A stretch of DNA of 62,384 bases, the filler included. It is 5 parts of 5 records of this genome, joined end to end, with 100 filler letters (N's around TTAATTAATTAA, not from the genome) between each part and the next. Parts side by side here need not be neighbours in the genome. Positions count along the whole stretch, not along the records: positions 36,377 to 48,491 come from SRR31147125_17052; 4 more parts are not named here. One strand, given 5' to 3'. Numbering within the stretch: position 1 is the stretch's first letter; the number at the start of each line of letters is the position of its first letter. The translations under genes were made by a program, and so were the position numbers. Shown here in pieces: positions 14,463 to 54,638 of the stretch. The notes beneath the pieces were generated by a model that was not told the DNA's origin, ran no database searches, and was given only the letters and a program-made list of their open reading frames with translations.

Positions 14463-14562
14463 NNNNNNNNNNNNNNNNNNNNNNNNNNNNNNNNNNNNNN
14501 NNNNNNTTAATTAATTAANNNNNNNNNNNNNNNNNNNNNNNNNNNNNNNNNNNNNNNNNNNN
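14463..14562. other. Artificial contig spacer
   Basis: N44-TTAATTAATTAA-N44 (stop codons in all six frames). Confidence 0.98.
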
Positions 14563-36276: not shown

Positions 36277-36376
36277 NNNNNNNNNNNNNNNNNNNNNNNN
36301 NNNNNNNNNNNNNNNNNNNNTTAATTAATTAANNNNNNNNNNNNNNNNNNNNNNNNNNNNNNNNNNNNNNNNNNNN
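36277..36376. other. Artificial contig spacer
   Basis: N44-TTAATTAATTAA-N44. Confidence 0.98.
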
Positions 36377-36397
36377 TTTTGCCGTATTGTTATTCAT
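36377..36397 (-). CDS. Start of a further gene (MNNNTAK...) running off the contig
   Basis: AGGAG RBS upstream of ATG at 36397 on the minus strand. Confidence 0.5.
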
Positions 36398-36561
36398 ACT
36401 ATTTCTCCTATTCCTTACATTTATTAAGTATTTCATTTTCTAAAAAGTCGTATCGCAGTGCTCATATTTGTCAATGCTTCAGCATCTAGTTAATAAAACT
36501 ATGATTAGTACAAGAACGCAGCTCTCATTGTATTTTCTCTCTAAATAATATCTATTTGCTT

Positions 36562-38580
36562 CTAGAAATCAAGACCTATTCCACTATCTGTATGTCTTTT
36601 CTCAGTATAACTTTTTGCACTTTTGTCATAATGCGGTGTGCTTTCATCTCCATGCCCACAGTCATGATCACCATTAATATAGTGCTCAGTATCCAAATGG
36701 GACGCTGGTGAATCCTTATGGTGAATATCCTTATGAACATCTGCAATATAATCTGTGTGCGGCTTAGTAATTATAGAAATCAAATCAGGATTTGTCGGGA
36801 TAATATCCTTAAATCTTTTATAAATAAAAATTATATTCTCTGCAATTTTCGTTCTGTGTTTCCAACCATAAGATTCTCTTTTTAACATTGTTGTCAACGT
36901 TTTCAATAATAATTTATTATATTCTATATCAATAATGTATTTGTTGGCATACATATCATTAAACACATTACCAGTAATTACTTTTTTCCAGTTTGCTTCA
37001 CCCAGCTTATAAAGTGATTCAGCCACTTTTACTCTGACATCATCATTCCTGTCAGCCAAAAATAGCTTTAGTGGTTCCACATCCATCTTATTATTTTTAT
37101 TTCCAATAGCATCAATCAAAAAGAGTTTATATTCATTACTTGATTCATTCATCATACCCAATATAAATTGATATATTTCTTCTTTCTCATATTTTTCACT
37201 AAAATAACCTGCAGAAACCAGGTCAGGTTTGTCAGGAATTAGGTCACTAGATTTTTCATATATAAAAACTATATCTTCTACAATTTCTCTTTTCTTTTCA
37301 TTGTTATTAAAATGTTCATATAGCATATCCCTCAATATTTTGAGCAATTGTCTATTAAATTCAATATCCTTAATCTGTCTTACAGCACGAATATCATTAT
37401 AAATATTACCAGTAATTACTACATTCCAATTTTTTTCATCTTTTACATAAAGCATTTCAGCAGCTTTTACTCTGATATCATCATTCTTGTCAGCCAATAA
37501 TAACTCTAGTGGTTCTATGTATATCTTATTGTTTTGACTTCTAAAAGTATCAATTAAAAAGAATTTGTGTTCATCAATTGATTCATTCATCATACCCAAT
37601 ATAAACTGGTACATTTCTTCTTTCGTATACTTTTCGCTAAAATAACCTGCTGAAATCAAATCAGGTTTATCTGGAATTAAATCATTATGTTTTCTACATA
37701 TATAAACTATTAAATCTGCAATCTCTCTTTCACTATTATTATTTTTAAAATTTTCATAAAACATACTTCTCAACATTTTAAGCAAATGTCTATTAAATTC
37801 GATATCCTCAATCTGTCTTACAGCATGAATATCACTATAAATATCACCAGTAATTACTGCCTTCCACTTCTTTTCGCCTAACTCATATAACGAATTAGCT
37901 GCATGAATTCTGACATTTTTATTTCTATCAGCCAGAAGCATTCTTATTGACTTAACAACCCGTTCACCCTCTTGGTTTTCCATTGCCTTTATTGCATATA
38001 TTTTCTTTACTTCTGATTTATCTGCCATTAAATCCAGCAAATATTGATATACATAGTCTTTTCTGTGCTTTCTGCTTATATGTCCAAGCATTACTGCCCT
38101 TTTTTTATTATATTTATTCAGTTCATCAAGATATTTCTTTAGCTTTTCATCATCAGCATATTTGAGCATAAAAAACATTTTTATATAGTTTACTATCGCA
38201 CTTGCTTTTAATCCATTGTATACAAATAAGTACAAGTTTATCATTAATACTGTAATACATAAGTAAAAATAAACATGTAATACATAATACACTATCACAT
38301 CTCTCTCTACTAAAAAAATAAATGCAATAATTATACCCAAAAAAGATGCAGGCATTTTTAAATATAAGTCTTCTTCATCTTCATAATGATGATTATGTTT
38401 AAAGTACTCTCGACCTATGATTAAACATTTGTTAGCAATATACCAAACAATAATGAAAACTATCCAGAAAACAAATAAGAACCTCATATCTTCATCAATA
38501 TTACGGTTAAGCACTTTGATAAATCCGTATTCACAATATACAATTTTCCTAATAAATTCCAAGTTAAATAATTTCATCAT
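36562..38580 (-). CDS. Membrane-anchored HEAT-repeat protein with 146-aa tandem modules and a C-terminal His-x-Asp repeat tail
   Basis: About 3 N-terminal TM helices; LAD.N..VR..AA..L HEAT-like units; tail HTD..HKD..HKD..HLD..HGD..HYD..HTDSGIGLDF. Confidence 0.8.
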   Translation of the reverse strand: MMKLFNLEFIRKIVYCEYGFIKVLNRNIDEDMRFLFVFWIVFIIVWYIANKCLIIGREYFKHNHHYEDEEDLYLKMPASFLGIIIAFIFLVERDVIVYYVLHVYFYLCITVLMINLYLFVYNGLKASAIVNYIKMFFMLKYADDEKLKKYLDELNKYNKKRAVMLGHISRKHRKDYVYQYLLDLMADKSEVKKIYAIKAMENQEGERVVKSIRMLLADRNKNVRIHAANSLYELGEKKWKAVITGDIYSDIHAVRQIEDIEFNRHLLKMLRSMFYENFKNNNSEREIADLIVYICRKHNDLIPDKPDLISAGYFSEKYTKEEMYQFILGMMNESIDEHKFFLIDTFRSQNNKIYIEPLELLLADKNDDIRVKAAEMLYVKDEKNWNVVITGNIYNDIRAVRQIKDIEFNRQLLKILRDMLYEHFNNNEKKREIVEDIVFIYEKSSDLIPDKPDLVSAGYFSEKYEKEEIYQFILGMMNESSNEYKLFLIDAIGNKNNKMDVEPLKLFLADRNDDVRVKVAESLYKLGEANWKKVITGNVFNDMYANKYIIDIEYNKLLLKTLTTMLKRESYGWKHRTKIAENIIFIYKRFKDIIPTNPDLISIITKPHTDYIADVHKDIHHKDSPASHLDTEHYINGDHDCGHGDESTPHYDKSAKSYTEKRHTDSGIGLDF
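36770..37945 (-). repeat. Intragenic tandem repeat, period 438 nt (146 aa), about 2.7 copies; boundaries approximate
   Basis: TGATTCATTCATCATACCCAATATAA at 37141 and 37579; protein LAD.N..[VI]R...W..VITG..PD.PDL repeats three times. Confidence 0.85.
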
Positions 38581-38610
38581 TTTCTCCTTCTTACAGCAAT
38601 TATTTTTGCG

Positions 38611-40944
38611 TTAGTAATCAATACTTAAATAATCCAGCGATGTTTTGTATAGTGCTTCATAATTTAGTTTAAGTGTAGTACAATCACCCTGCATTCTGCA
38701 CAATTCACATGTGCTGTTTTTACATAATGCTATACACATCCCACCGCACAAATATCTATAACGGCAAGATTTGCATTTTTCATTTTTATCCACACTGTAT
38801 TCACGCATCTTAGTAAAATTCACACTATTAATAATATTTTCTATTCCATCTTTTACCACATTCCCCAGATAAGCTTCTGTTGGACAATATGCATAGCAGG
38901 GATATGTATCACCTGTCGGTTGAATATATAAATTCTGACCAATACCACAAGTTTTATGAGGAACAATTCTATCCTCAAGAATGTCTATAGACAGTTTATC
39001 TAACTTAAAATAATTATCTTCTAATAATTCCCTATTTTCATTTGCTCTGCCTAGTGGAAGAATCGGAGTAAATTTCACTTTTTTTATTCCATATTTATTA
39101 GCCAGATATCTTACATGTTTGCCCTCTCTACCAAAAGCCTCTCTTTCCAGCATAGCTGAAGAAAGTGAGATTTTTGCCGTGGACACTCCGTCTACTGCAT
39201 TCATATATTGAGAGATATTGTTCACAGTTTTATCATAAGAGCCTTGACCTCGTCTAGCATCATGAGATTGTTTATCACCGTCTACACTCACTACAATTTC
39301 ATCAAATGCCTCACCTATCATTAATAATATTTTATTTGTAAGAGGCATAGAGAAATTCGTTCTCAATGCTATTTTGCACAGATTACTATCTTTTCTAATT
39401 TGAATTAATTTCCCTAAAAGTCCACTAATGTCTTTCAGAATTAAAGGCTCTCCTCCAGTAATCACAACAGAATCAAAGCCTTCCTTTGTACATTGCTTAA
39501 TAAGGTTAACAATATCTTTACTCTTCATATCAGAATCTTTATTGCAATTTCCTGCATTAGCATAGCAGTGACTACATTTCAATTGACAATTCCAAGTAAC
39601 ATGAATATATGCTTTGTTCAGATTATCTATATCATCAATATGCGTTTTCAATGCTAATAAAGAGTCTCGCAGTGTTTGTTTTGATTGCCCCAATTCCATA
39701 TCATAAAGACTTTGCAAAGTTAATTCAAAATCATTATTTTTACCCAATTCATAACACGCAACAATTCTCTTTGCCCTCCTTGCTACATCGTACGGATGAG
39801 CACCTTCTTTGTTTATGTTTATCAGTTTTCCCTCTCTAAGTAGCGGGTTACCTTTTGATGAAGCTCCATACTTCGCAATAGCTATTTCATTAGCAGGGCT
39901 AATCATCTCCTGATACAATCCATTCTTTATATAATCAAACACCGCTTTATATGTGTCGCAGTATATATCAACCGGTCTGTTGGACATAATTGCATTATAT
40001 GTACATCCGCCCTTGCAATACTTATAGTGTTCGCAATCCTTACACTCATTTTTCACGTCTTTTTGATGCTTAATAATTCTCTGACCCATATCATTATCAA
40101 TTAATTCATCAATTACAGGTTTATCGCCAATATTACCAAGACTATATTTACTGTTACCGGCAAATCTCTGGCATGAATAAATATCTCCATATGGGTCTAT
40201 CACCAAAAACATACCAAAACAGTCACAAAAGCTGCATACTCTACCATTATTGGAAGATACACTTTGACACATTTGATCAAGAGTGCTTATTTTTATTCTA
40301 TTAGAGTTTTCCTTATACCATTCAAAAATATCTTTCAGCAAAATCGCATACTCACTTGGTGAAATATCATAATCTGACTGTACATCATAGGTATTTACAG
40401 CACCGTGCACTGAAAAGTGCATATTATTTGAAATAAAAAAGTCAACTACTTCTTTATATTTAGGGGCAGAAAGAGCTGTAAATGTAGCTATGCATCCGCA
40501 GTTCATTACATATTTCCTAGCTAAATTAATTCCGCGCATTGTATTATCAAAGTAGCCTTCTCCACGCTGTCTGTCATTAATTTCTTTTGGACCATCTAGG
40601 CTGGTGCTTATATTCACATGATACTTTTTAAACAGTCTACAGTACTCATCATCCAAGAGCCATAAATTACTCTGTATGCCTACATTGGCATTATCAAATC
40701 TACTGTCTATTCCTACAAGTATAGATTTAATAATTTCATGCCCTGCCATTAGTGGTTCTCCGCCATGCAGCGTAATATTCACTTTATCCTGACCTGTTTC
40801 ATTCACTATTCTTTTAATATAGTCAAGGCTATTATTTACCATAGCTATATCCATTGTTTTCCCCTTATTATAGCCAAAGCAGTATTTACATGCCGCCTGG
40901 CAAGATAGTGATGGTATTATCATAAAGTTTGGTGATTTTATCAT
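38611..40944 (-). CDS. Double radical SAM/SPASM enzyme, probably peptide/protein-modifying (N-terminal half resembles the TIGR04083 type, from memory)
   Basis: Two CxxxCxxC motifs (CQAACKYC, CQLKCSHC), two GGEP motifs, two SPASM clusters (CKDCEHYKYCKGGC, CKSCRYRYLCGGMC). Confidence 0.88.
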   Translation of the reverse strand: MIKSPNFMIIPSLSCQAACKYCFGYNKGKTMDIAMVNNSLDYIKRIVNETGQDKVNITLHGGEPLMAGHEIIKSILVGIDSRFDNANVGIQSNLWLLDDEYCRLFKKYHVNISTSLDGPKEINDRQRGEGYFDNTMRGINLARKYVMNCGCIATFTALSAPKYKEVVDFFISNNMHFSVHGAVNTYDVQSDYDISPSEYAILLKDIFEWYKENSNRIKISTLDQMCQSVSSNNGRVCSFCDCFGMFLVIDPYGDIYSCQRFAGNSKYSLGNIGDKPVIDELIDNDMGQRIIKHQKDVKNECKDCEHYKYCKGGCTYNAIMSNRPVDIYCDTYKAVFDYIKNGLYQEMISPANEIAIAKYGASSKGNPLLREGKLININKEGAHPYDVARRAKRIVACYELGKNNDFELTLQSLYDMELGQSKQTLRDSLLALKTHIDDIDNLNKAYIHVTWNCQLKCSHCYANAGNCNKDSDMKSKDIVNLIKQCTKEGFDSVVITGGEPLILKDISGLLGKLIQIRKDSNLCKIALRTNFSMPLTNKILLMIGEAFDEIVVSVDGDKQSHDARRGQGSYDKTVNNISQYMNAVDGVSTAKISLSSAMLEREAFGREGKHVRYLANKYGIKKVKFTPILPLGRANENRELLEDNYFKLDKLSIDILEDRIVPHKTCGIGQNLYIQPTGDTYPCYAYCPTEAYLGNVVKDGIENIINSVNFTKMREYSVDKNEKCKSCRYRYLCGGMCIALCKNSTCELCRMQGDCTTLKLNYEALYKTSLDYLSIDY

Positions 40945-40985
40945 TATTCTTTCTATTCCCTTTCCATCTCGTTTAATAAAATAAA

Positions 40986-43369
40986 CTAAAAATCAGTGAT
41001 TTTTAAACCAATTCCCTTATCACGATGTACTTCAGAACTTCCTCTTATACATAACTCATCTCCCAAAAACTTAGTGTATGTTCTATCATCATGCTGTTCA
41101 GTCATTTTATCTTTAATCTGTTTTGTTATTATCTCTTTGCAAGGGTATTGTTTCGCAAACTTAATCAATCGTATTGCTGCTTGTCTTCTCAACTTCAATT
41201 TTCAATTATCTAGTGCTAATTTCATACCATCGATTAATCTATAATCATCAATTTTTGCTAATCTGTGAAAATCACTATCTTCTGCTTTAATTATATTTTG
41301 CCATTCGGGTTCTCCTAATTTACTCAAAGTTTTTGCTGCTTTAATTCTCACTTCAGATTCTTCACTGCACAGCCGAGTAACTATATAATCAGTGGCCTTT
41401 TTACTTCCAATCTTCCCAAGAGCATCTATCATTAATATAGTTTTTTCTGTATCATAAAAACAATTATTTAATTCTTCAATTAATGGTTCTACAGGTATCA
41501 TCCTTATTATATCACTATTAACACCTCTATATAAATCAAGTAATTCTATGCAAGTATTTGCACTACTATGTTTAAAAATTATTGCAAGACTATTCTGCGA
41601 ATATAAAGTGTCAATTTTCAGCAGTTCCTTTGCTACATCAATCAATGTAGAATCAGGTGCATTAATAGTAATGCGTTCTATTTGTTCTTTAACCCTAACA
41701 ACGCTTTCTTTATCACCAATTATTGCTTTAGTTTCATTCCTAATTACTTTATCATTACTATCTAATAATTCAACCAGTGCATCCATCGCCTTTTCACTTA
41801 CTATATTTCCCAAAGTTATTACGGCAAATTTTAGTGCTTCAGCACTCTTCATTCTACCTTTAGTTCTATTTAGCATACAGAAAATTAAATCTACATCATC
41901 ATCGTTCCCTAAATTTTGAATCGCTTTTGACGCTGCTTTTTTCACATTGTAATCCTTATCAGTTAAACAGTTTACTAAATGTTCATTAGCTTTTTCACTT
42001 CCAATGTTTTCTATAGCTTCAATTGCCGTTACTTGAATCCTACTATTTTTATTGCTAAGCAAATCTATAAATGCATCAAATGCTTGAATACATTTTAATT
42101 GTCCAAGCATTGCAAGTATTGATTCAACAATAACAGTATTCTTGATTTCAAGTCCCTCAATCAGAGCTTCTGTTGCTTCGGTATTATTAAGCTTACCCAG
42201 TACTTGTATTGCTGCTTTCCCAACCTCAACATCATCACTGTTCAACAATTTTGCGATATGTTTAATATCTATTTTATGTTTATAATCATACAACAATTCT
42301 AATACAGCGCATTTTACATCTGTATTATCATCATCTAATAATTTGATTAAACAGTTTAGTGACTTTATATTCTTCTTCTTCGCAATTAATTTAATTGCTT
42401 CCATCCGTATTTCTTCACAATATATATCGCAATCTGCAATGTAAATTAATTCATTTTGTGATTTTGTTCCTCCAATTTTACCAATACTCTTTACTGCAGC
42501 CATACTAAGTTCTATGTTCTTCTTATCCATTAAACTTAAAAGTACTTGAATAACATTTTCATCTTTTGATTCACCTAATGATAATACCTGTAATTTAAAG
42601 AAGCTAGTTATTTTACTTGACTCATCAATATTGCGACTCTCTAAAATAACATTTTCCACTAATAAATCATTTATATATTTATCATTCATCTTAGCAAGTC
42701 TACCAAAATCACCATTATTACCCTTTGTAAATTTATTCCATTTAGATACCCCAAGCTTTGTCAACATTCTGCAAATACCTAATCTTTTCTTACCATATTT
42801 ACAGATTATCAATCCTTTTGTTAATAAATCTATTACTTTTTTTCCACCAATATTCACTAATGTTTTTTCACATTCTTCGTCAATATTGATTGGATTCTTT
42901 GTAGTAGATATATATATATTAAATACTGGTCCAGCTACTCTTATATCTTTTATATTACCAAATGCCCCTATAACACATTTATACACATATCCTTCATAGT
43001 CATTACTATTTAATATTTCTAGTAGGATATCTATTGATTTACCGCTTCTTAACTTGCCAAGCACCTGTATAATCATTTCCAGTATAAGTTTCTCCTTTTC
43101 TATTTTTTTCTGCAAAAAAACTTCACTATTATCCCAATAATCTCTTTTTTTATTTTTGTTTTAGATAATTGACTTAACTCTAACATCGTATTTTTAAGTA
43201 ATAAAATTAAAGGTTCCTCTGCCTTAACATCACCCATTTTCTCCAATAAGTTTATTGCTTTTAGTTTAATATCACGATCAGGATTTTTTAATTCAGCAAT
43301 AATTAAATCTATCTTACCGCGTTTAGCCCATCTTTCCATCATGCGTTTTATTCTTTCTCTTGCACTCAT
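40986..43369 (-). pseudogene. HEAT-repeat protein with His-x-Asp/GIGL tail, interrupted by a T7 frameshift (43114-43120) and an in-frame TGA (41202-41204)
   Basis: ORFs 43100-43369, 41202-43115 and 40986-41198 join into one HEAT (PBS-lyase-like) protein ending HDD...HRDKGIGLKITDF. Confidence 0.75.
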
Positions 43370-43473
43370 AATTTACTCTCTTTCAGATTCGTATAATTAT
43401 ATACATTGAATCAGTAATAATAGCCCTGACATAGAAATATTCTTATCATCGATAATCATTCAACTTTAAATCT

Positions 43474-43517
43474 ATTATATACAAACCATAATTCCAATCG
43501 GTGTGCATTTTGCACAC
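43474..43517 (-). promoter_or_regulatory. Palindromic operator plus -10 box upstream of the HEAT/radical SAM operon
   Basis: GTGTGCA-N3-TGCACAC at 43501-43517, then 21 nt, then TATAAT (43474-43479) on the minus strand. Confidence 0.75.
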
Positions 43518-43575
43518 AAAAAAATCCACCACATTCTGTAATGGATTTTATAAGCCAAATATTTATATTATTCCA

Positions 43576-45201
43576 CTACTCATTCCCCTCAATATGCAGA
43601 TTATTTATCTCTGGCAATGCTGAAAAATCCGTAATATTGTTATTTTCAAGGAATAAATTCTCTAACTTAAGATTCACAAGTGGTGTGACATCTTCAACAA
43701 AGGCGTTATTAATATATAAAAACTTCAACCTGAACAGGTCTGCCAAAGGTGATAAATCAGATACTGAGGTAAAGGATGCATTTAGCTCGCTAAGGTATAT
43801 CATATCTGACAAAGCAGATATATCTGTAATAGGGTTTCCATCCAGATTCAAAGAAATGATTCCACTGCAGTCTGCAAGGGGCGATATATCTGAAATGTAG
43901 TTGCCAGCAGTATTGAGGTATTCAAGGTTTAGATGTGATAATGCAGAAATATCATTAATATTCTGATATACCAGATGCAGCGACCTGATGTTATTAAACA
44001 TCTTCAAATCATCAATGCTCTTTATCTGGCCCCTTTGTAACTTTGTATCGTTTCCCTCTTTGTAATCATCACGATACACATATACATTGTCAAAGCTCGG
44101 ACTATAGCTTATCATCAGCTCCTGACTATCATCAAAGTATTTATCTCCCCAGATATGCAGGTACTCTATTTCATCCAGTTCATACATCACAATTGGCTCG
44201 TCGTTTGTCTTGCCAAGCTGTTCACGTACTGCCATTTCAATAATTCCTGATTCAAACTCTACAATTTGGTCAGGGTTTTGATTGTAAAAAATTGGAATAA
44301 CCTCATATCTTTCCAATGCAATACCTAGTACAGTACCTATCAATAAACCAGCAGCAGCAAATGCAAAAGCCAGCATAAGAGATAGCTGAGACTTCTTCGA
44401 CTTCTCCGCCCTAATAATATCCGATTCTAATTCTTTTACACTATTGTATCTGTCCTTTGGAGAAAATGCTGTGCATTTATCTATTATTCTGGCGAATGCC
44501 TTATTGTCCAGCATATCAATGCGCTTGATATCAGTAGACAATGTAGTCAAAAACATCATCAATACCCCAACCGCATATATATCAGACCTTTCATCAGTCT
44601 GAGCATATCCATATTGCTCTGGCGGTGAATATACCTTTGTACCAATACATGTTGTGTCTTTGGTAGATGTTTCATCGAATTTCCTGGAGATATCAAAATC
44701 AATCAGTTTTATATTATTCTGAGAATCAATTATTATATTCTCCGCCTTAATATCTCTGTATATTATAGGTGTTTTCCTTGAATGCAGATAGTCAAGTATA
44801 TCTATAATATCTTTTATCACATTAAGTGCTTTTGCACTTGAGAATACCCCGTTCTGAATTATATAATCCGCTAGAGTAGTTCCATCAAAATACTCTCTAA
44901 TCAAATAAGTCTTTCCTTTAATATTATGATTCTCAACAAACGATGGTATTGCTGAATGTGATAATTCTTTCAAAATACTATCATTCTCCTCAAACATAGT
45001 ATCATGGATTTTTAGTACTCTTTTCACATAATCTTTTTTGCTCTTAATCAAATAAACTTCCGAGCGTTTTGACTTTGACAGCAATGTAATTATTTCGTAC
45101 TTTTCTAGTATAATAGATGGCAGTAACTCATCATCGTTCATCATCTGCACAAATTCCTGCTTAAACTCAACTACATCTTTTAATATATCTTTTTTTTCCA
45201 T
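43576..45201 (-). CDS. Hanks-type Ser/Thr protein kinase with TM helix and extracellular internalin-like LRR domain
   Basis: VLKI, YRDIKAENI, DFD, GTKVYSPPEQYG, SDIYAVG; TM helix; LRR units L..N.I.DISAL. Confidence 0.9.
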   Translation of the reverse strand: MEKKDILKDVVEFKQEFVQMMNDDELLPSIILEKYEIITLLSKSKRSEVYLIKSKKDYVKRVLKIHDTMFEENDSILKELSHSAIPSFVENHNIKGKTYLIREYFDGTTLADYIIQNGVFSSAKALNVIKDIIDILDYLHSRKTPIIYRDIKAENIIIDSQNNIKLIDFDISRKFDETSTKDTTCIGTKVYSPPEQYGYAQTDERSDIYAVGVLMMFLTTLSTDIKRIDMLDNKAFARIIDKCTAFSPKDRYNSVKELESDIIRAEKSKKSQLSLMLAFAFAAAGLLIGTVLGIALERYEVIPIFYNQNPDQIVEFESGIIEMAVREQLGKTNDEPIVMYELDEIEYLHIWGDKYFDDSQELMISYSPSFDNVYVYRDDYKEGNDTKLQRGQIKSIDDLKMFNNIRSLHLVYQNINDISALSHLNLEYLNTAGNYISDISPLADCSGIISLNLDGNPITDISALSDMIYLSELNASFTSVSDLSPLADLFRLKFLYINNAFVEDVTPLVNLKLENLFLENNNITDFSALPEINNLHIEGNE

Positions 45202-45628
45202 TATTCATCCTTCACAAATTCATCTAAAAACCATTGGTATTCCAAATAAGAATATCCCCGATTCAAGCAACGTATTGCTGCCGCTTCATTCAGTTTTCTT
45301 GGGTCAAGTTTAGATTTTCCTGCAGCTTCAAAGAGCTTAATTGCCTCTCTGCTATTCAAGCATAGCCCAAAACTTATTCGAATTAAGTTCTCACGGTTTG
45401 CCTTCCTTCTTCCATTTATTAAATGGTAACCAAATGTTCTTTCCAGATCAGATCCTTTTATTACATCCGATCTTTTTAAATCCTTTTTTTAAGCACATTC
45501 AGTACAAACTCATACAGTGAGCGATCAAAAAAATCATCCTCGTGTTTCTTTTTATAATCACCAAATCCAATGCCGTCTTCCAGCTCATCATACATGATTT
45601 GTGTAGTAGATTTATCTATTTCACTCAT
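45201..45628 (-). CDS. XRE/HTH-like transcriptional regulator, missed by the ORF track because of an A7 frameshift at 45484-45490
   Basis: With one added A: MSEIDKSTTQ...LKKKDLKRSDVIKGSDLERTFGYHLINGRRKANRENLIRISFGLCLNSREAIKLFEAAG...KDE; the stop overlaps the kinase ATG (TAATG). Confidence 0.75.
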
Positions 45629-45736
45629 TCTTTCTCTTTCCTCCCGGATACTTGATCTTAATTACTACTAATAATAATTATACCATACTTTGCAATTGAT
45701 AGTGTTGTATTCAAACAAGATTATTGTTGTAAATTT

Positions 45737-45780
45737 TTGTGCAAAATGCACACCATTTATTATTGCAGCAATAGTATATT
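45737..45780 (+). promoter_or_regulatory. Second operator copy plus -10-like box
   Basis: TTGTGCA-AAA-TGCACAC at 45737-45753, then 21 nt, then TATATT (45775-45780), upstream of the 45818 gene. Confidence 0.7.
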
Positions 45781-45817
45781 TAGTACATAAATAGAACATA
45801 CGAAAGAGAGAAAATTC

Positions 45818-46978
45818 ATGGACATATTATCAAACATAATAATTATAGTTATAACGTTAGCTAATATATTATTCTTTTTTATCAATGCTTCAGAAGGCTT
45901 TGCTCGAGGACGTAACTCATTTTCTTCCTTTTTATTCCCATCAATATTTCAAATAGGTTTGCCAATTATAGTGGGTGTAATATTAGCTAAATACAATTAT
46001 AATTCGCTGTGGTTATTACCTACTTTAGGAATAGGAGGTTATATATCATATAAACTATCCTTTTTGGGAACAGATTATAAAGGGCTACTAAATAGGGCAA
46101 AAACAAATACACCAGAAGAACTAGACTCTGTGTTAAAGGAACTCGAAAACGATGAACATAAAAATGCAATTGATGTTTTACTATGGATTGCAAAAAATGC
46201 TGCTATACCAGAACCTAACAGTAATAATGCTCCAGATAGAAGAGATATCGCAAGGCGCATGATAGGTGAAAATTTAAAAGGGAAAAAAGCTATTGATGCT
46301 CTTATTGAGTCAGCCCCTCCAAATCATGATTTCAAAAACGGATACATTCTAAAGTGTATGGAAACCTTAACAAATGAGGAACTGCTAGAGTATGCAGATA
46401 AACTGCCTGTATGCTCAAAAATAGTAGCCGATAATCGTGGAATAAAACTTAGCGAAATAATACCATGTAAAATATGTAATAAATGTGCTCGTAATAAAAA
46501 GCATGGTATAGTCTATAGCTATATAGTTAATTATACAAGGACTAGTAAAGAAATAGATACTCTTTACAGATATACAGTTACAAAGGATCATACTGAATCT
46601 CGTACTTGTTTTATATGCAAAGAATGTATTATCTCTATCATGAAATTAAAAGAATCTCACACACTCTATATAATTACTGGAGTAGTAGCTTCAGTAATCT
46701 GTGTATTGATTATGCTTATATGGAAAGCGTATTGGATTGGTGTATGTTTTTTATGCTGTGGTGTATTAGCTATAATATTTGGATTGATTGTTCAATTTAT
46801 ACATAACAAAAAGAACAGTAAAATGCTGGAAGACCTTAATAATAATTATTATGAAGATTACTTTGATTCAATAATATCATCTATTATCATCAATGAATTA
46901 TCCAACGGTGGTTCAGAATGCGATTTTGAAATCAAAAGCCTCCATCACAATATAATAGAGGTAATAAAACAAGATTAG
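45818..46978 (+). CDS. Membrane protein with a helical region and Cys clusters (putative Zn ribbon)
   Basis: 3 N-terminal and 2 C-terminal TM helices; CKICNKC and CFICKEC. Confidence 0.7.
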   Translation: MDILSNIIIIVITLANILFFFINASEGFARGRNSFSSFLFPSIFQIGLPIIVGVILAKYNYNSLWLLPTLGIGGYISYKLSFLGTDYKGLLNRAKTNTPEELDSVLKELENDEHKNAIDVLLWIAKNAAIPEPNSNNAPDRRDIARRMIGENLKGKKAIDALIESAPPNHDFKNGYILKCMETLTNEELLEYADKLPVCSKIVADNRGIKLSEIIPCKICNKCARNKKHGIVYSYIVNYTRTSKEIDTLYRYTVTKDHTESRTCFICKECIISIMKLKESHTLYIITGVVASVICVLIMLIWKAYWIGVCFLCCGVLAIIFGLIVQFIHNKKNSKMLEDLNNNYYEDYFDSIISSIIINELSNGGSECDFEIKSLHHNIIEVIKQD

Positions 46979-47066
46979 TTTTACTATTTATACTTCATGT
47001 TCAGACTTTTTGAAGACGTACATAAGACGAATAAGTAAATTCATAATATAATAAACGAGGTAATTT

Positions 47067-47195
47067 ATGACAACTACACAAGGTACAATAGAGGGCTTAA
47101 CCGACGAACTAACACCATTCAGTAAGCTGACTACAGCAATAATTACAGCATCTACAAATATACGCAGAGCTGGAAATATGCTGATTATTTACTAG
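47067..47195 (+). CDS. Possible 42-aa Thr-rich small ORF or gene remnant
   Basis: GAGGT RBS then MTTTQGTIEGLTDELTPFSKLTTAIITASTNIRRAGNMLIIY*. Confidence 0.35.
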   Translation: MTTTQGTIEGLTDELTPFSKLTTAIITASTNIRRAGNMLIIY

Positions 47196-47205
47196 TGCGC
47201 ATAGC

Positions 47206-47255
47206 CTATTGGTGTGCAAAATGCACACCAATAGCATCCCTCAAACATATATAAT
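47206..47255 (+). promoter_or_regulatory. Third operator copy (extended 13-bp perfect inverted repeat) plus -10 box
   Basis: CTATTGGTGTGCA-AAA-TGCACACCAATAG at 47206-47234; core ends at 47228, then 21 nt, then TATAAT (47250-47255). Confidence 0.78.
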
Positions 47256-47287
47256 AAAAATATAAATAATATGGAGGTACAAATAAC

Positions 47288-48003
47288 ATGAAAAGATATA
47301 TAGTTCTTGTTCTATTATTGCTATTACTAATAGCACTTTCAGGCTGCAGCAGCCAAACGCAGACAGCAGAGCTAAACGAAATCGAGACCACCTCTACAAT
47401 ATCAGAAGCAACACCTGAGCCAACAGTAGAAACAGCACCTGAACCAACATATGAAGCTCCAGCATATGAATCCATCATAGAGGGTTTTAATCCTGCATTG
47501 ATTGAGGCAGTCAAACCATATTCAACCAATGTATCTATATCTCTACAAAAGTACGATGGAAAATCAAAATATAAACTCCAGTTTAATCTAATCGAGAATA
47601 GTTTGGAGGACTGCAGGCAATCAATAGAATCTGCTCTGGACATTACATTTAGTAAGCTAGATAACGAAGATGGATATGAAGCAGAGTATGAAAAAACTGC
47701 AATAATCATGTTTATAAACGAATATGGTCAGGGGTAGAGATTCTAATCTCTGCACATAGTATGCCTGATAAGAAACTCTCAGATTACTACTTTGAGGAGC
47801 TGTCAATACCTGTACCAGATGACATGGAACTGTTTTTTACAAATCTGCAGATAAATTTCATAGAGAATAACGTTGTTGTACACCAAAATTACACAGTTGA
47901 TGCAGCTCAAAAGGATGCAGTCTATAATGCATATACCTTGGAACTTCAAAAGTATCCTACTTACAAGGAACACAACTTTTACTTAGTATCCTATCACAAG
48001 TAA
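47288..48003 (+). CDS. Lipoprotein with Pro/Thr/Glu linker, probably frameshifted at the G run near 47731-47734
   Basis: GGAGG RBS, lipobox LSGC, TPEPT repeats; one extra G links it to ORF 47761-48003. Confidence 0.6.
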
Positions 48004-48185
48004 TGATGAATAATGGATATACTGATGAGCAGGCAGACAGAATCAAAGAAATAGGTCAAAACGTATATGATGATCACGGTGCAATGGGTATGAAGGAAGT
48101 ATATCGAGGGGTAACAAGCAAGCTCCCTGCACTGGGCTCAACTCTATCGCAGATTTGGGATGGAGTCGCTGACTGGGCGTATTAA
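48003..48185 (+). CDS. Small helical domain or C-terminal gene fragment
   Basis: RIKEIGQ..HGAMGM..LSQIWDGVADW; frame open upstream to about 47928 with no clear RBS. Confidence 0.5.
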   Translation: MMNNGYTDEQADRIKEIGQNVYDDHGAMGMKEVYRGVTSKLPALGSTLSQIWDGVADWAY

Positions 48186-48263
48186 TAGTAATTAATCATA
48201 ATATGTAGCTGCAGACATTAAACCAACTGCAGTTACATTATCTATAGCACAAGGAGAATATTC

Positions 48264-48491
48264 ATGGATAATAACAATAAAACCGATCCTGTAGAATTAG
48301 CTCTATTCGCACTTCATATGAAGGCAACATATACAGTTAAACATACAGTTATTAATACCCTGGATTATCTTTCTCTAAAACCTTTTTCCACAGAAGAGCG
48401 CAATCAGTATACACCTATTGAGTGGATTGAAAAGCAGGAGATAAAAGCTACAGAACTACTTCGTTACACCAACAGTGTTGCACTGCTGTTT
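48264..48491 (+). CDS. Hypothetical protein, 3'-truncated
   Basis: AAGGAG RBS and ATG; open to the contig end. Confidence 0.55.
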
Positions 48492-48591
48492 NNNNNNNNN
48501 NNNNNNNNNNNNNNNNNNNNNNNNNNNNNNNNNNNTTAATTAATTAANNNNNNNNNNNNNNNNNNNNNNNNNNNNNNNNNNNNNNNNNNNN
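48492..48591. other. Artificial contig spacer
   Basis: N44-TTAATTAATTAA-N44. Confidence 0.98.
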
Positions 48592-54538: not shown

Positions 54539-54638
54539 NNNNNNNNNNNNNNNNNNNNNNNNNNNNNNNNNNNNNNNNNNNNTTAATTAATTAANNNNNN
54601 NNNNNNNNNNNNNNNNNNNNNNNNNNNNNNNNNNNNNN
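54539..54638. other. Artificial contig spacer
   Basis: N44-TTAATTAATTAA-N44. Confidence 0.98.

Follow-up and report, generated by a model that had tools for sequence, protein, structure and literature searches.

Radical S-adenosylmethionine (SAM) maturases of the SPASM type have mostly been studied on short secreted peptides. The anaerobic sulfatase-maturating enzyme (anSME), a SPASM enzyme devoid of a leader-binding domain, matures a full-size protein by oxidizing Cys or Ser in the sulfatase motif to formylglycine, and enzymes of the QhpD/PapB type connect the sulfur of a Cys with carbons of Asp or Glu, acting on the protein subunit QhpC and the peptide PapA, respectively. In the His-Xaa-Ser system, the repeats of HxsA occur together with the paired radical SAM enzymes HxsB and HxsC. 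The triceptide maturases HaaB and HtkB, according to PMC11499958, are SPASM radical SAM enzymes which act on aromatic-x-x units repeated in the precursor (HAA and HTK, respectively) and form a bond from His C2 to the beta-carbon of the third residue, with the loss of 2 Da. The present analysis concerns a locus on the minus strand of the piece SRR31147125_17052 (positions 36377-48491; 12.1 kb, about 31% GC), one of five pieces joined end to end in the window, i.e. the whole stretch of 62,384 nt that was analysed. Here, a twin radical SAM/SPASM enzyme lies between the genes of two HEAT-repeat proteins, HEAT-A and HEAT-B, together with sequences for C-terminal tails composed of His-x-Asp (HxD) units. 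It is probable, in our view, that the enzyme modifies the tails of the neighbouring HEAT proteins, so that both would constitute a two-component system of protein maturation. This conserved pairing falls within radical SAM/SPASM peptide and protein maturation and is apparently undescribed: no account of a radical SAM/HEAT-tail pairing was found, by title or abstract among the papers listed, in a literature search that left subscription journals, supplements and NCBIfam comment text outside its scope.

The association of the enzyme with tailed HEAT proteins is conserved when approached from the enzyme side. A scan of one genome per species yielded at least 534 confirmed relatives among 600 matched stretches, a numerous group which, by record titles, extends over many bacterial phyla and includes the methanogen Methanospirillum; cultured carriers, again by title, are Lamprocystis purpurea DSM 4197 and Anaerolinea thermolimosa IMO-1. 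Seventy-eight loci were kept, and all open reading frames (ORFs) of these loci and the window (79 sources in total) were clustered. The families common to the sources are the enzyme, which occurs in all of them, and the HEAT proteins (58 of 79), while the family that comes next is limited to 10 sources; this clustering brought up no conserved protease, exporter or recognition protein near the enzyme. HEAT genes number one to six per locus, are mostly directly adjacent to the enzyme gene and share its strand in 98 of 101 cases. At least two HxD or HxE units are present within the last 60 residues of 73 of the 95 HEAT ORFs whose 3' end is complete, as opposed to 20 of 991 other ORFs. Moreover, the strict end motif H.D.G[ILVM]G[ILVMF], at most 12 residues from the stop codon, was detected in 31 of the 78 loci and always on the strand of the enzyme, and a relaxed form of it in 42 tails, five rows without any HEAT context being dropped from the relaxed-motif set. 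For the window proteins and five homologous HEAT proteins, NCBIfam holds no tail-specific model, and on these HEAT proteins it recognizes only generic CpcE/CpcF/NblB-like repeats, below their cutoffs.

The reciprocal approach started from the tail. A degenerate DNA pattern encoding HxDxGIGxDFP was applied to metagenome contigs; the tail alignment contains no conserved stretch of 7-10 columns. Out of 83 loci retrieved, 73 carry true C-terminal tails and 10 fail the criteria, two of the latter (L106 and L124) resembling real tails with long extensions. The enzyme is encoded in 40 of the 73 tail loci, in 40 of 40 cases on the same strand and at a distance of 0-5671 nt. The remaining 33 loci comprise merely 0-1979 nt of DNA 5' of the tail ORF, which cannot accommodate an enzyme gene of 2.4 kb, and are thus uninformative. 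Furthermore, five genomes (4.2-8.8 Mb) each contain exactly one match to a tail profile, and in four of them the match is the HEAT gene adjoining the enzyme. The sequence-only reading of the locus had named the occurrence of HxD-GIGL tails independently of the radical SAM gene as the finding that would speak against it; no such case arose in either direction, and the tail-side search is free of informative counter-examples.

The tails share a common architecture, in which a W-x3-I-x-G...DF-x-RL module is followed by an R-x2-AA-x2-L helix, a first HxD, a variable segment that often holds S-D-C, and a last HxD-x-G-I-G-h-x-F. After GIG, the tails often finish with FP-h or, past an extension, with DF. 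The first His as well as the Arg and Ala of the helix are invariant or nearly so, though they were not among the selection criteria. In 110 inner segments, i.e. tails stripped of their first and last HxD, H.D occurs 106 times as against 20.7 +/- 3.9 in shuffled sequences (maximum 33 in 1000), whereas HD, H..D, D.H, H.S, H.E and H.N do not exceed expectation (H.S 13 versus 20.2). The middle residue of the unit varies. This enrichment of H.D corresponds to the repeated aromatic-x-x units of triceptide and cyclophane substrates. Among 112 distinct tails, two HxD/E units are found in 59, three in 21, four in 19 and five to nine in 13; a copy number of 2-9, in conjunction with up to six HEAT genes per locus, would be typical of repeated cores. 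The HEAT bodies range from about 150 to 1500 residues, and only the C-terminal module and the tail are specifically conserved.

In variant tails, the Cys as well as the first and last HxD are retained and GIG is replaced, for instance in a group that ends in VHFDL. In this Bacillota-titled clade (L038, L040, L041, L047, L048 and L054), twin enzymes are accompanied by up to six HEAT genes per locus, and the tails keep HxD...C...HxD and end in V/A-H/T-F-D-L in place of GIG. In some homologues (L003 5241-7916, L061 11026-12900 and L124 1-1191), the HxD-GIG tail is followed by an extension of 60-90 residues that contains two CxxC pairs, resembles a zinc ribbon and again ends in DF. Asp-Phe is the final dipeptide of many tails irrespective of the length of the extension (e.g. 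L001, L006, L009, L010, L016 and L068) and also of both window tails (36565-36570 and 40989-40994), while other tails stop right after GIG-h-D-F-P-h.

Both halves of the enzyme belong to the radical SAM and SPASM families: Pfam assigns two stretches each of Radical_SAM (98.1 bits) and SPASM (60.8 bits) in addition to Fer4_12, and CX3CX2C motifs reside at residues 15-22 and 453-460, in agreement with the sequence-only reading of a 777-residue twin enzyme. Across 23 sequences, C453, C457, C460 and the SPASM cysteines show no variation. The enzyme is a member of TIGR04083 (352.3 bits for the whole protein and 310 for residues 1-400 alone, at a cutoff of 300), an NCBIfam hypothetical equivalog named "peptide-modifying radical SAM enzyme", which is uncharacterised and whose name gives no substrate; no mention of the accession was found in the literature, subscription journals and supplements lying outside the search. 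Since the model of 376 positions spans the first domain only, and the C-terminal half reaches just 56 bits against it, the second radical SAM/SPASM domain is left without a family; among the papers listed for two-domain radical SAM enzymes, none concerns this family by title or abstract. Database relatives of about 750-900 residues are named after TIGR04083, and the best 120 of 1934 matches are full-length (726-900 residues) and 37-48% identical. An AlphaFold2 model (predicted local distance difference test 86.6, predicted template modelling score 0.79) comprises two radical SAM/SPASM domains and an all-helical linker at residues 350-437. The nearest solved folds are anSME (TM 0.77-0.82, target-normalised, for the N-terminal domain), CteB and ChlB (TM 0.78), with the anSME structure PDB 4k36 matching the N-terminal half at an E value of 1.5e-30. 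The radical SAM domain begins at residue 9, leaving no N-terminal leader-binding domain. A complex prediction for the enzyme and a tail of 70 residues scored 0.00 in two runs, both made without alignments, and weighs neither for nor against the pairing.

The locus shares some traits with each of the described systems. The triceptide maturases HaaB and HtkB follow the same i/i+2 logic as the HxD units, and ChlB is a structural neighbour; on the contrary, their precursors are short, whereas here the motif forms the end of a HEAT protein of 150-1500 residues, the third residue is Asp, the enzyme is a twin, and neither a protease nor an exporter is conserved. The scores for cyclophane families stay below the respective cutoffs (XyeB 72/450, GrrM/OscB 89.8/310, FxsB 88.3/370, YhhB 118.5/445 and AmcB 104.7/425 bits). 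anSME/AtsB is the closest characterised sequence relative of the N-terminal half and provides its closest solved structure, but there is no sulfatase at the locus, the motif is different, and the family cutoff (TIGR03942, 349.45) exceeds the scores of the whole enzyme (208.1 bits) and the N-terminal half (164.7 bits). Likeness to QhpD and PapB lies in the single Cys and the Asp residues that most tails contain; however, the Cys-to-Asp spacing is not fixed, amine dehydrogenase genes are lacking, and QhpD (70.5/453) and PapB (118.7 and 78.7/340 bits for the two halves) remain below cutoff. The His-Xaa-Ser system likewise combines repeated His-x-residue triplets with two radical SAM activities, but in the present case both enzymes form one protein, the repeats are part of HEAT proteins, H.S is not enriched, and HxsB is matched at 137.8 and 99 bits against a cutoff of 370. 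Behind TIGR04083, the N-terminal half has anSME, DynA, PapB and cyclophane synthases as runners-up, all below cutoff, and the top scores of the C-terminal half are StsB (104.5/625 bits), TIGR04053 (83.5), PapB, WgkB (75.4) and the SCIFF maturase (71.5/425), all far below theirs. Among these best matches of the C-terminal half, StsB, PapB and the SCIFF maturase are thioether-forming maturases, a resemblance that does not amount to membership.

We infer the relation of enzyme and substrate from the association conserved in both directions and from the repeated-core appearance of the tails, and the chemistry from the motif spacing, the His-x-x cyclophane precedents HaaB and HtkB, and the weak family resemblances. 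The tail would be the equivalent of the core of a ribosomally made peptide with post-translational modifications (RiPP), reaching from the first HxD to the last HxD-x-G-I-G-h-x-F, with 0-7 further HxD units and usually one Cys in between. The conserved upstream module (W-x3-I-x-G...DF-x-RL and the R-x2-AA-x2-L helix) together with the GIG-x-F end may serve as the recognition element. The N-terminal TIGR04083 domain would act on the H-x-D units, most likely by a triceptide-type three-residue cross-link between the side chains of His and Asp (-2 Da per unit), while the C-terminal domain would act on the Cys-containing segment, most likely by thioether formation. The missing conservation of a protease, an exporter or a separate recognition protein fits the modification of a protein end and not of a released peptide, and because protease and exporter are not conserved, the product would remain attached to the HEAT scaffold.

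The division of labour between the two domains is illuminated by relatives that consist of the N-terminal half alone, with a HEAT gene coming directly after it. Among the tails beside twin enzymes, 55 contain Cys and 5 do not, while none of the 16 tails beside N-half-only enzymes does. Counted by locus, 37 twin loci bear a Cys-containing tail and 4 a Cys-free one (29 without a scored tail), as opposed to 0 and 10 single-domain loci, respectively (7 without a scored tail). This is suggestive of a second domain that serves the Cys segment and a first domain that suffices for HxD.

Several points weigh against this interpretation. Association alone does not prove that enzyme and HEAT protein are related as enzyme and substrate. 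Both halves score far below the curated cutoffs of the characterised families, so that family resemblance does not fix the chemistry, and anSME, the closest solved relative of the N-terminal half, oxidizes a side chain and introduces no cross-link. Twenty-one of the 79 sources are without a HEAT neighbour; many of these sit at the end of a contig, but ample flanks are present in L034, L044, L055 and a number of single-domain loci. The tail-side test sampled only the GIGxDFP form of the tail. In Anaerolinea thermolimosa (by record title), the fifth of the genomes mentioned above, the single tail protein (contig 1, 2355425-2355685) is encoded 276 kb from the single twin enzyme (2077044-2079380), and hence adjacency is not obligatory; both genes are nevertheless present there. 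Among 201 genomes sampled around it in the phylum, this genome alone has a real tail match, two others matching in the HEAT part only, and the system is too rare in this sample for a table of presence and absence. With respect to the domain count, a FastTree phylogeny of 88 N-terminal halves requires three changes to the single-domain state among 51 rows with both traits; with only three independent pairs, a sign test cannot reach significance. Moreover, four twin loci have Cys-free tails, and L029 and L109, the twin loci closest to one of the single-domain lineages, are without Cys as well.

Alternatively, the tail might be the substrate of another chemistry, namely an anSME-like oxidation, Cys-to-Asp thioethers only, as in PapB and QhpD, or an epimerisation, to which we assign a minor share of the probability. 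The position of anSME as nearest relative of the N-terminal half outside TIGR04083, by sequence and by structure, the PapB-like scores of both halves, and the conservation of Asp as well as Cys in most tails speak in its favour. On the other hand, none of the family cutoffs concerned is reached, and the strict i/i+2 spacing of His and Asp around a free middle residue is that of a three-residue cyclophane motif. In addition, all 16 Cys-free tails with only two HxD units keep the N-terminal half of the enzyme, and Cys chemistry therefore cannot be the whole story. Cross-linking of the HxD units stays the preferred reading.

In the window, the minus strand of the piece holds open frames for HEAT-A, the enzyme, a 70-codon ORF, and a 637-residue HEAT ORF with an overlapping ORF of 89 residues (Table 1). 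ORFs and Pfam agree on the single run of HEAT-A, enzyme and HEAT-B body that the sequence-only reading had described, and its LGExxWxxxI-type modules are present in both HEAT proteins (HEAT-A at residues 234, 381, there as DEKNW, and 526; HEAT-B at 600). Altogether, its observations are confirmed in part, and its interpretation is supported.

Table 1. Coordinates of the enzyme, the HEAT proteins and their tails within the window.
Feature	Position	Strand	Basis
Twin radical SAM/SPASM enzyme, 777 aa	38611..40944	-	Pfam, TIGR04083, AlphaFold2 model
N-terminal radical SAM/SPASM domain, residues 1-~345 (C15/C19/C22)	39910..40944	-	TIGR04083 part
C-terminal radical SAM/SPASM domain, residues ~438-777 (C453/C457/C460)	38614..39633	-	no family assignment
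HEAT-A, 672 aa	36562..38580	-	ORF; Pfam HEAT_2 46.8 bits
HEAT-A hydrophobic stretches, residues ~28-124 (probable membrane anchor)	38209..38499	-	Kyte-Doolittle 19-residue windows >1.6
HEAT-A tail, residues 608-672	36565..36759	-	tail letters and tail-profile match
HEAT-B body	41205..43369	-	HEAT_2 162.3 bits in five stretches
In-frame TGA between HEAT-B body and tail	41202..41204	-	same in independent assembly
70-codon ORF with severed HEAT-B tail	40986..41198	-	starts TTG; tail profile E 4.2e-13

HEAT-A is intact and would be a probably membrane-anchored substrate. About three hydrophobic stretches of 19 residues near its N-terminus make the membrane anchorage of one HEAT protein, as proposed earlier, a probable trait. 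A Shine-Dalgarno sequence (AAGGAG, with the core GGAG) precedes the gene inside the 30-nt spacer after the enzyme gene. Three tandem direct repeats of 438 nt (146 residues) with 60-76% DNA identity extend over 36776-38069, each representing an LGE..W module plus helix; repeats 1 and 2 read ...PDLISAGYFSEKY where repeat 3, as the only copy, bears the HxD tail. The tail of 65 residues holds seven HxD units (HTD, HKD, HKD, HLD, HGD, HYD and HTD), has its single Cys in DHDCG and ends in HTDSGIGLDF. With the profile built from other loci, the whole ORF is matched at an E value of 1.7e-14, while a word-based protein search with residues 560-672 returned 13 candidates, none of them significant.

For HEAT-B, the body ORF (41202-43115, 637 residues from a TTG at 43115, with LGEPEWQNII at 41289-41318) and the N-terminal ORF of 89 residues (43100-43369, ATG at 43369) lie in different frames, the change occurring at a run of seven A on the gene strand (43145-43151). 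In an independent assembly of the probable source run, this stretch of A is one base longer, and the sequence is otherwise identical over 40900-43400. With eight A, and both frames being open across 43100-43160, the frames join to a body of about 722 residues, so that the apparent N-terminal frameshift vanishes. The in-frame TGA further downstream persists in that assembly. It separates the LGExxW...DF.RL module from the R..AA helix, a region that is continuous in all homologues examined, and severs the tail: the 70-codon ORF contains the RRQAAIRL helix, EQHDD, ELC and HRDKGIGLKITDF. Accordingly, the letters quoted for both tails in the sequence-only reading (KPHTD...HTDSGIGLDF and EQHDD...HRDKGIGLKITDF) are present, while the second tail is not joined to its HEAT protein. 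In our reading, the TGA interrupts a HEAT-B gene that would once have been fused to its tail.

The claim that a conventional short precursor is absent from the run holds in part. The 70-codon ORF lies directly upstream of the enzyme gene; on the other hand, the locus is not a conventional RiPP cluster, as tails are fused to HEAT proteins in the homologues, HEAT is the only family conserved nearby, and a RiPP recognition element was not seen in the enzyme, which starts with its radical SAM domain and has an all-helical linker in the model. For the window only, it appears rather unlikely that the ORF encodes a true precursor peptide in its own right, or is linked to HEAT-B through read-through of the TGA, and is not what a nonsense mutation left over. 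Consistent with such a role, the frame stays open for 71 codons past the TGA, with all conserved residues retained (R, AA, the first H.D, Cys and H.D.GIG), the TGA is identical in two assemblies of the same run and, while terminating other genes of the window, ends no other gene of the 12.1-kb piece, and a few loci from metagenomes also have tail ORFs that are short from stop to stop (62 codons in L079 and L102, 64 in L113 and 87 in L136). On the contrary, the TGA falls into the middle of the conserved C-terminal module, and neither the TTG nor an internal ATG of the ORF is preceded by GGAG or another Shine-Dalgarno sequence, which HEAT-A possesses. Translation of TGA as Trp or Gly under an alternative genetic code is unlikely, as about 2,700 codons of the piece include 19 in-frame TGG and not one further in-frame TGA, and the position of the conserved Trp is two codons away from the TGA. 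Independently of the window, L079 (907-1095) and L102 (126-314) share an identical stop-to-stop frame that lacks a HEAT part and any Met and ends in the typical tail HTD...HVDRGIGVDFPL; this is a short form or else a gene with a frameshift.

It is quite unlikely that the HEAT proteins are mere partners or scaffolds of the enzyme whose unmodified tails bind metal or mediate docking, the true substrate being encoded elsewhere. In its favour, HxD, Cys and HxD are groups that classically bind metals, scaffolding is a typical role of HEAT repeats, and the genes can be unlinked over 276 kb. Nevertheless, neither a further conserved gene nor a family of small ORFs goes along with the enzyme in the 79 sources, the motif copy number of 2-9 and the several tailed paralogues per enzyme follow the pattern of repeated cores, and conservation is confined to the module and tail at the end of otherwise variable HEAT bodies. 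A further idea, to which we likewise give little credence, is that two fused domains with two reactions generate a cross-linked His/Asp/Cys tail that acts as a protein-derived cofactor or a tight metal or redox site on the HEAT scaffold. In that event, the widespread "PBS-lyase-like" HEAT proteins found in bacteria and methanogens would be active components of an unknown pathway, and their protein-derived cofactor would form a new class, comparable to cysteine tryptophylquinone in QhpC. Chance as the origin of the arrangement is excluded by its conservation across loci and genomes.

With tail modification as the preferred reading, TIGR04083, named but uncharacterised, gains a concrete candidate substrate in the C-terminal tails of full-size HEAT-repeat proteins. 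If the tail is indeed the substrate, the cross-linking of His within three residues, or some related reaction, would reach beyond natural-product peptides into protein maturation, nature would offer an example of fused radical SAM domains, two in number, whose tasks can be separated, and the many "HEAT repeat domain" proteins whose role is unknown would obtain their first functional handle. The single-domain lineages and the Cys-free tails would provide built-in controls.

As to the surroundings, spacers of the form N44-TTAATTAATTAA-N44 at 14463-14562, 36277-36376, 48492-48591 and 54539-54638 delimit five separate pieces (GC in order about 31, 39, 31, 40-48 and 43%), and gene neighbourhood across these artificial spacers is consequently not real linkage. 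A low-GC island between dxr/rseP and gldG-like genes was rejected, as the steps in GC coincide with the spacers. Since dxr, rseP and lpxC-fabZ sit on a piece other than that of the system, the host is not inferable from these genes. Directly upstream and on the same strand, a Ser/Thr protein kinase with a transmembrane stretch and C-terminal leucine-rich repeats is encoded (43576-45201, minus strand; Pkinase 116.1 bits), which is not conserved beside the enzyme according to the ORF clustering of the 79 sources. A promoter scan yielded 65 sites versus 65.5 in shuffled sequences, i.e. no excess. Finally, a GGTGTGCAAAATGCACACC-like palindromic element of 21-24 nt occurs in three intergenic copies on the piece, located after the kinase gene (43497-43520), before the gene of a 386-residue membrane protein (45733-45755) and beside an ORF of 167 residues (47208-47232), and two of the three copies were also flagged as terminator-like.

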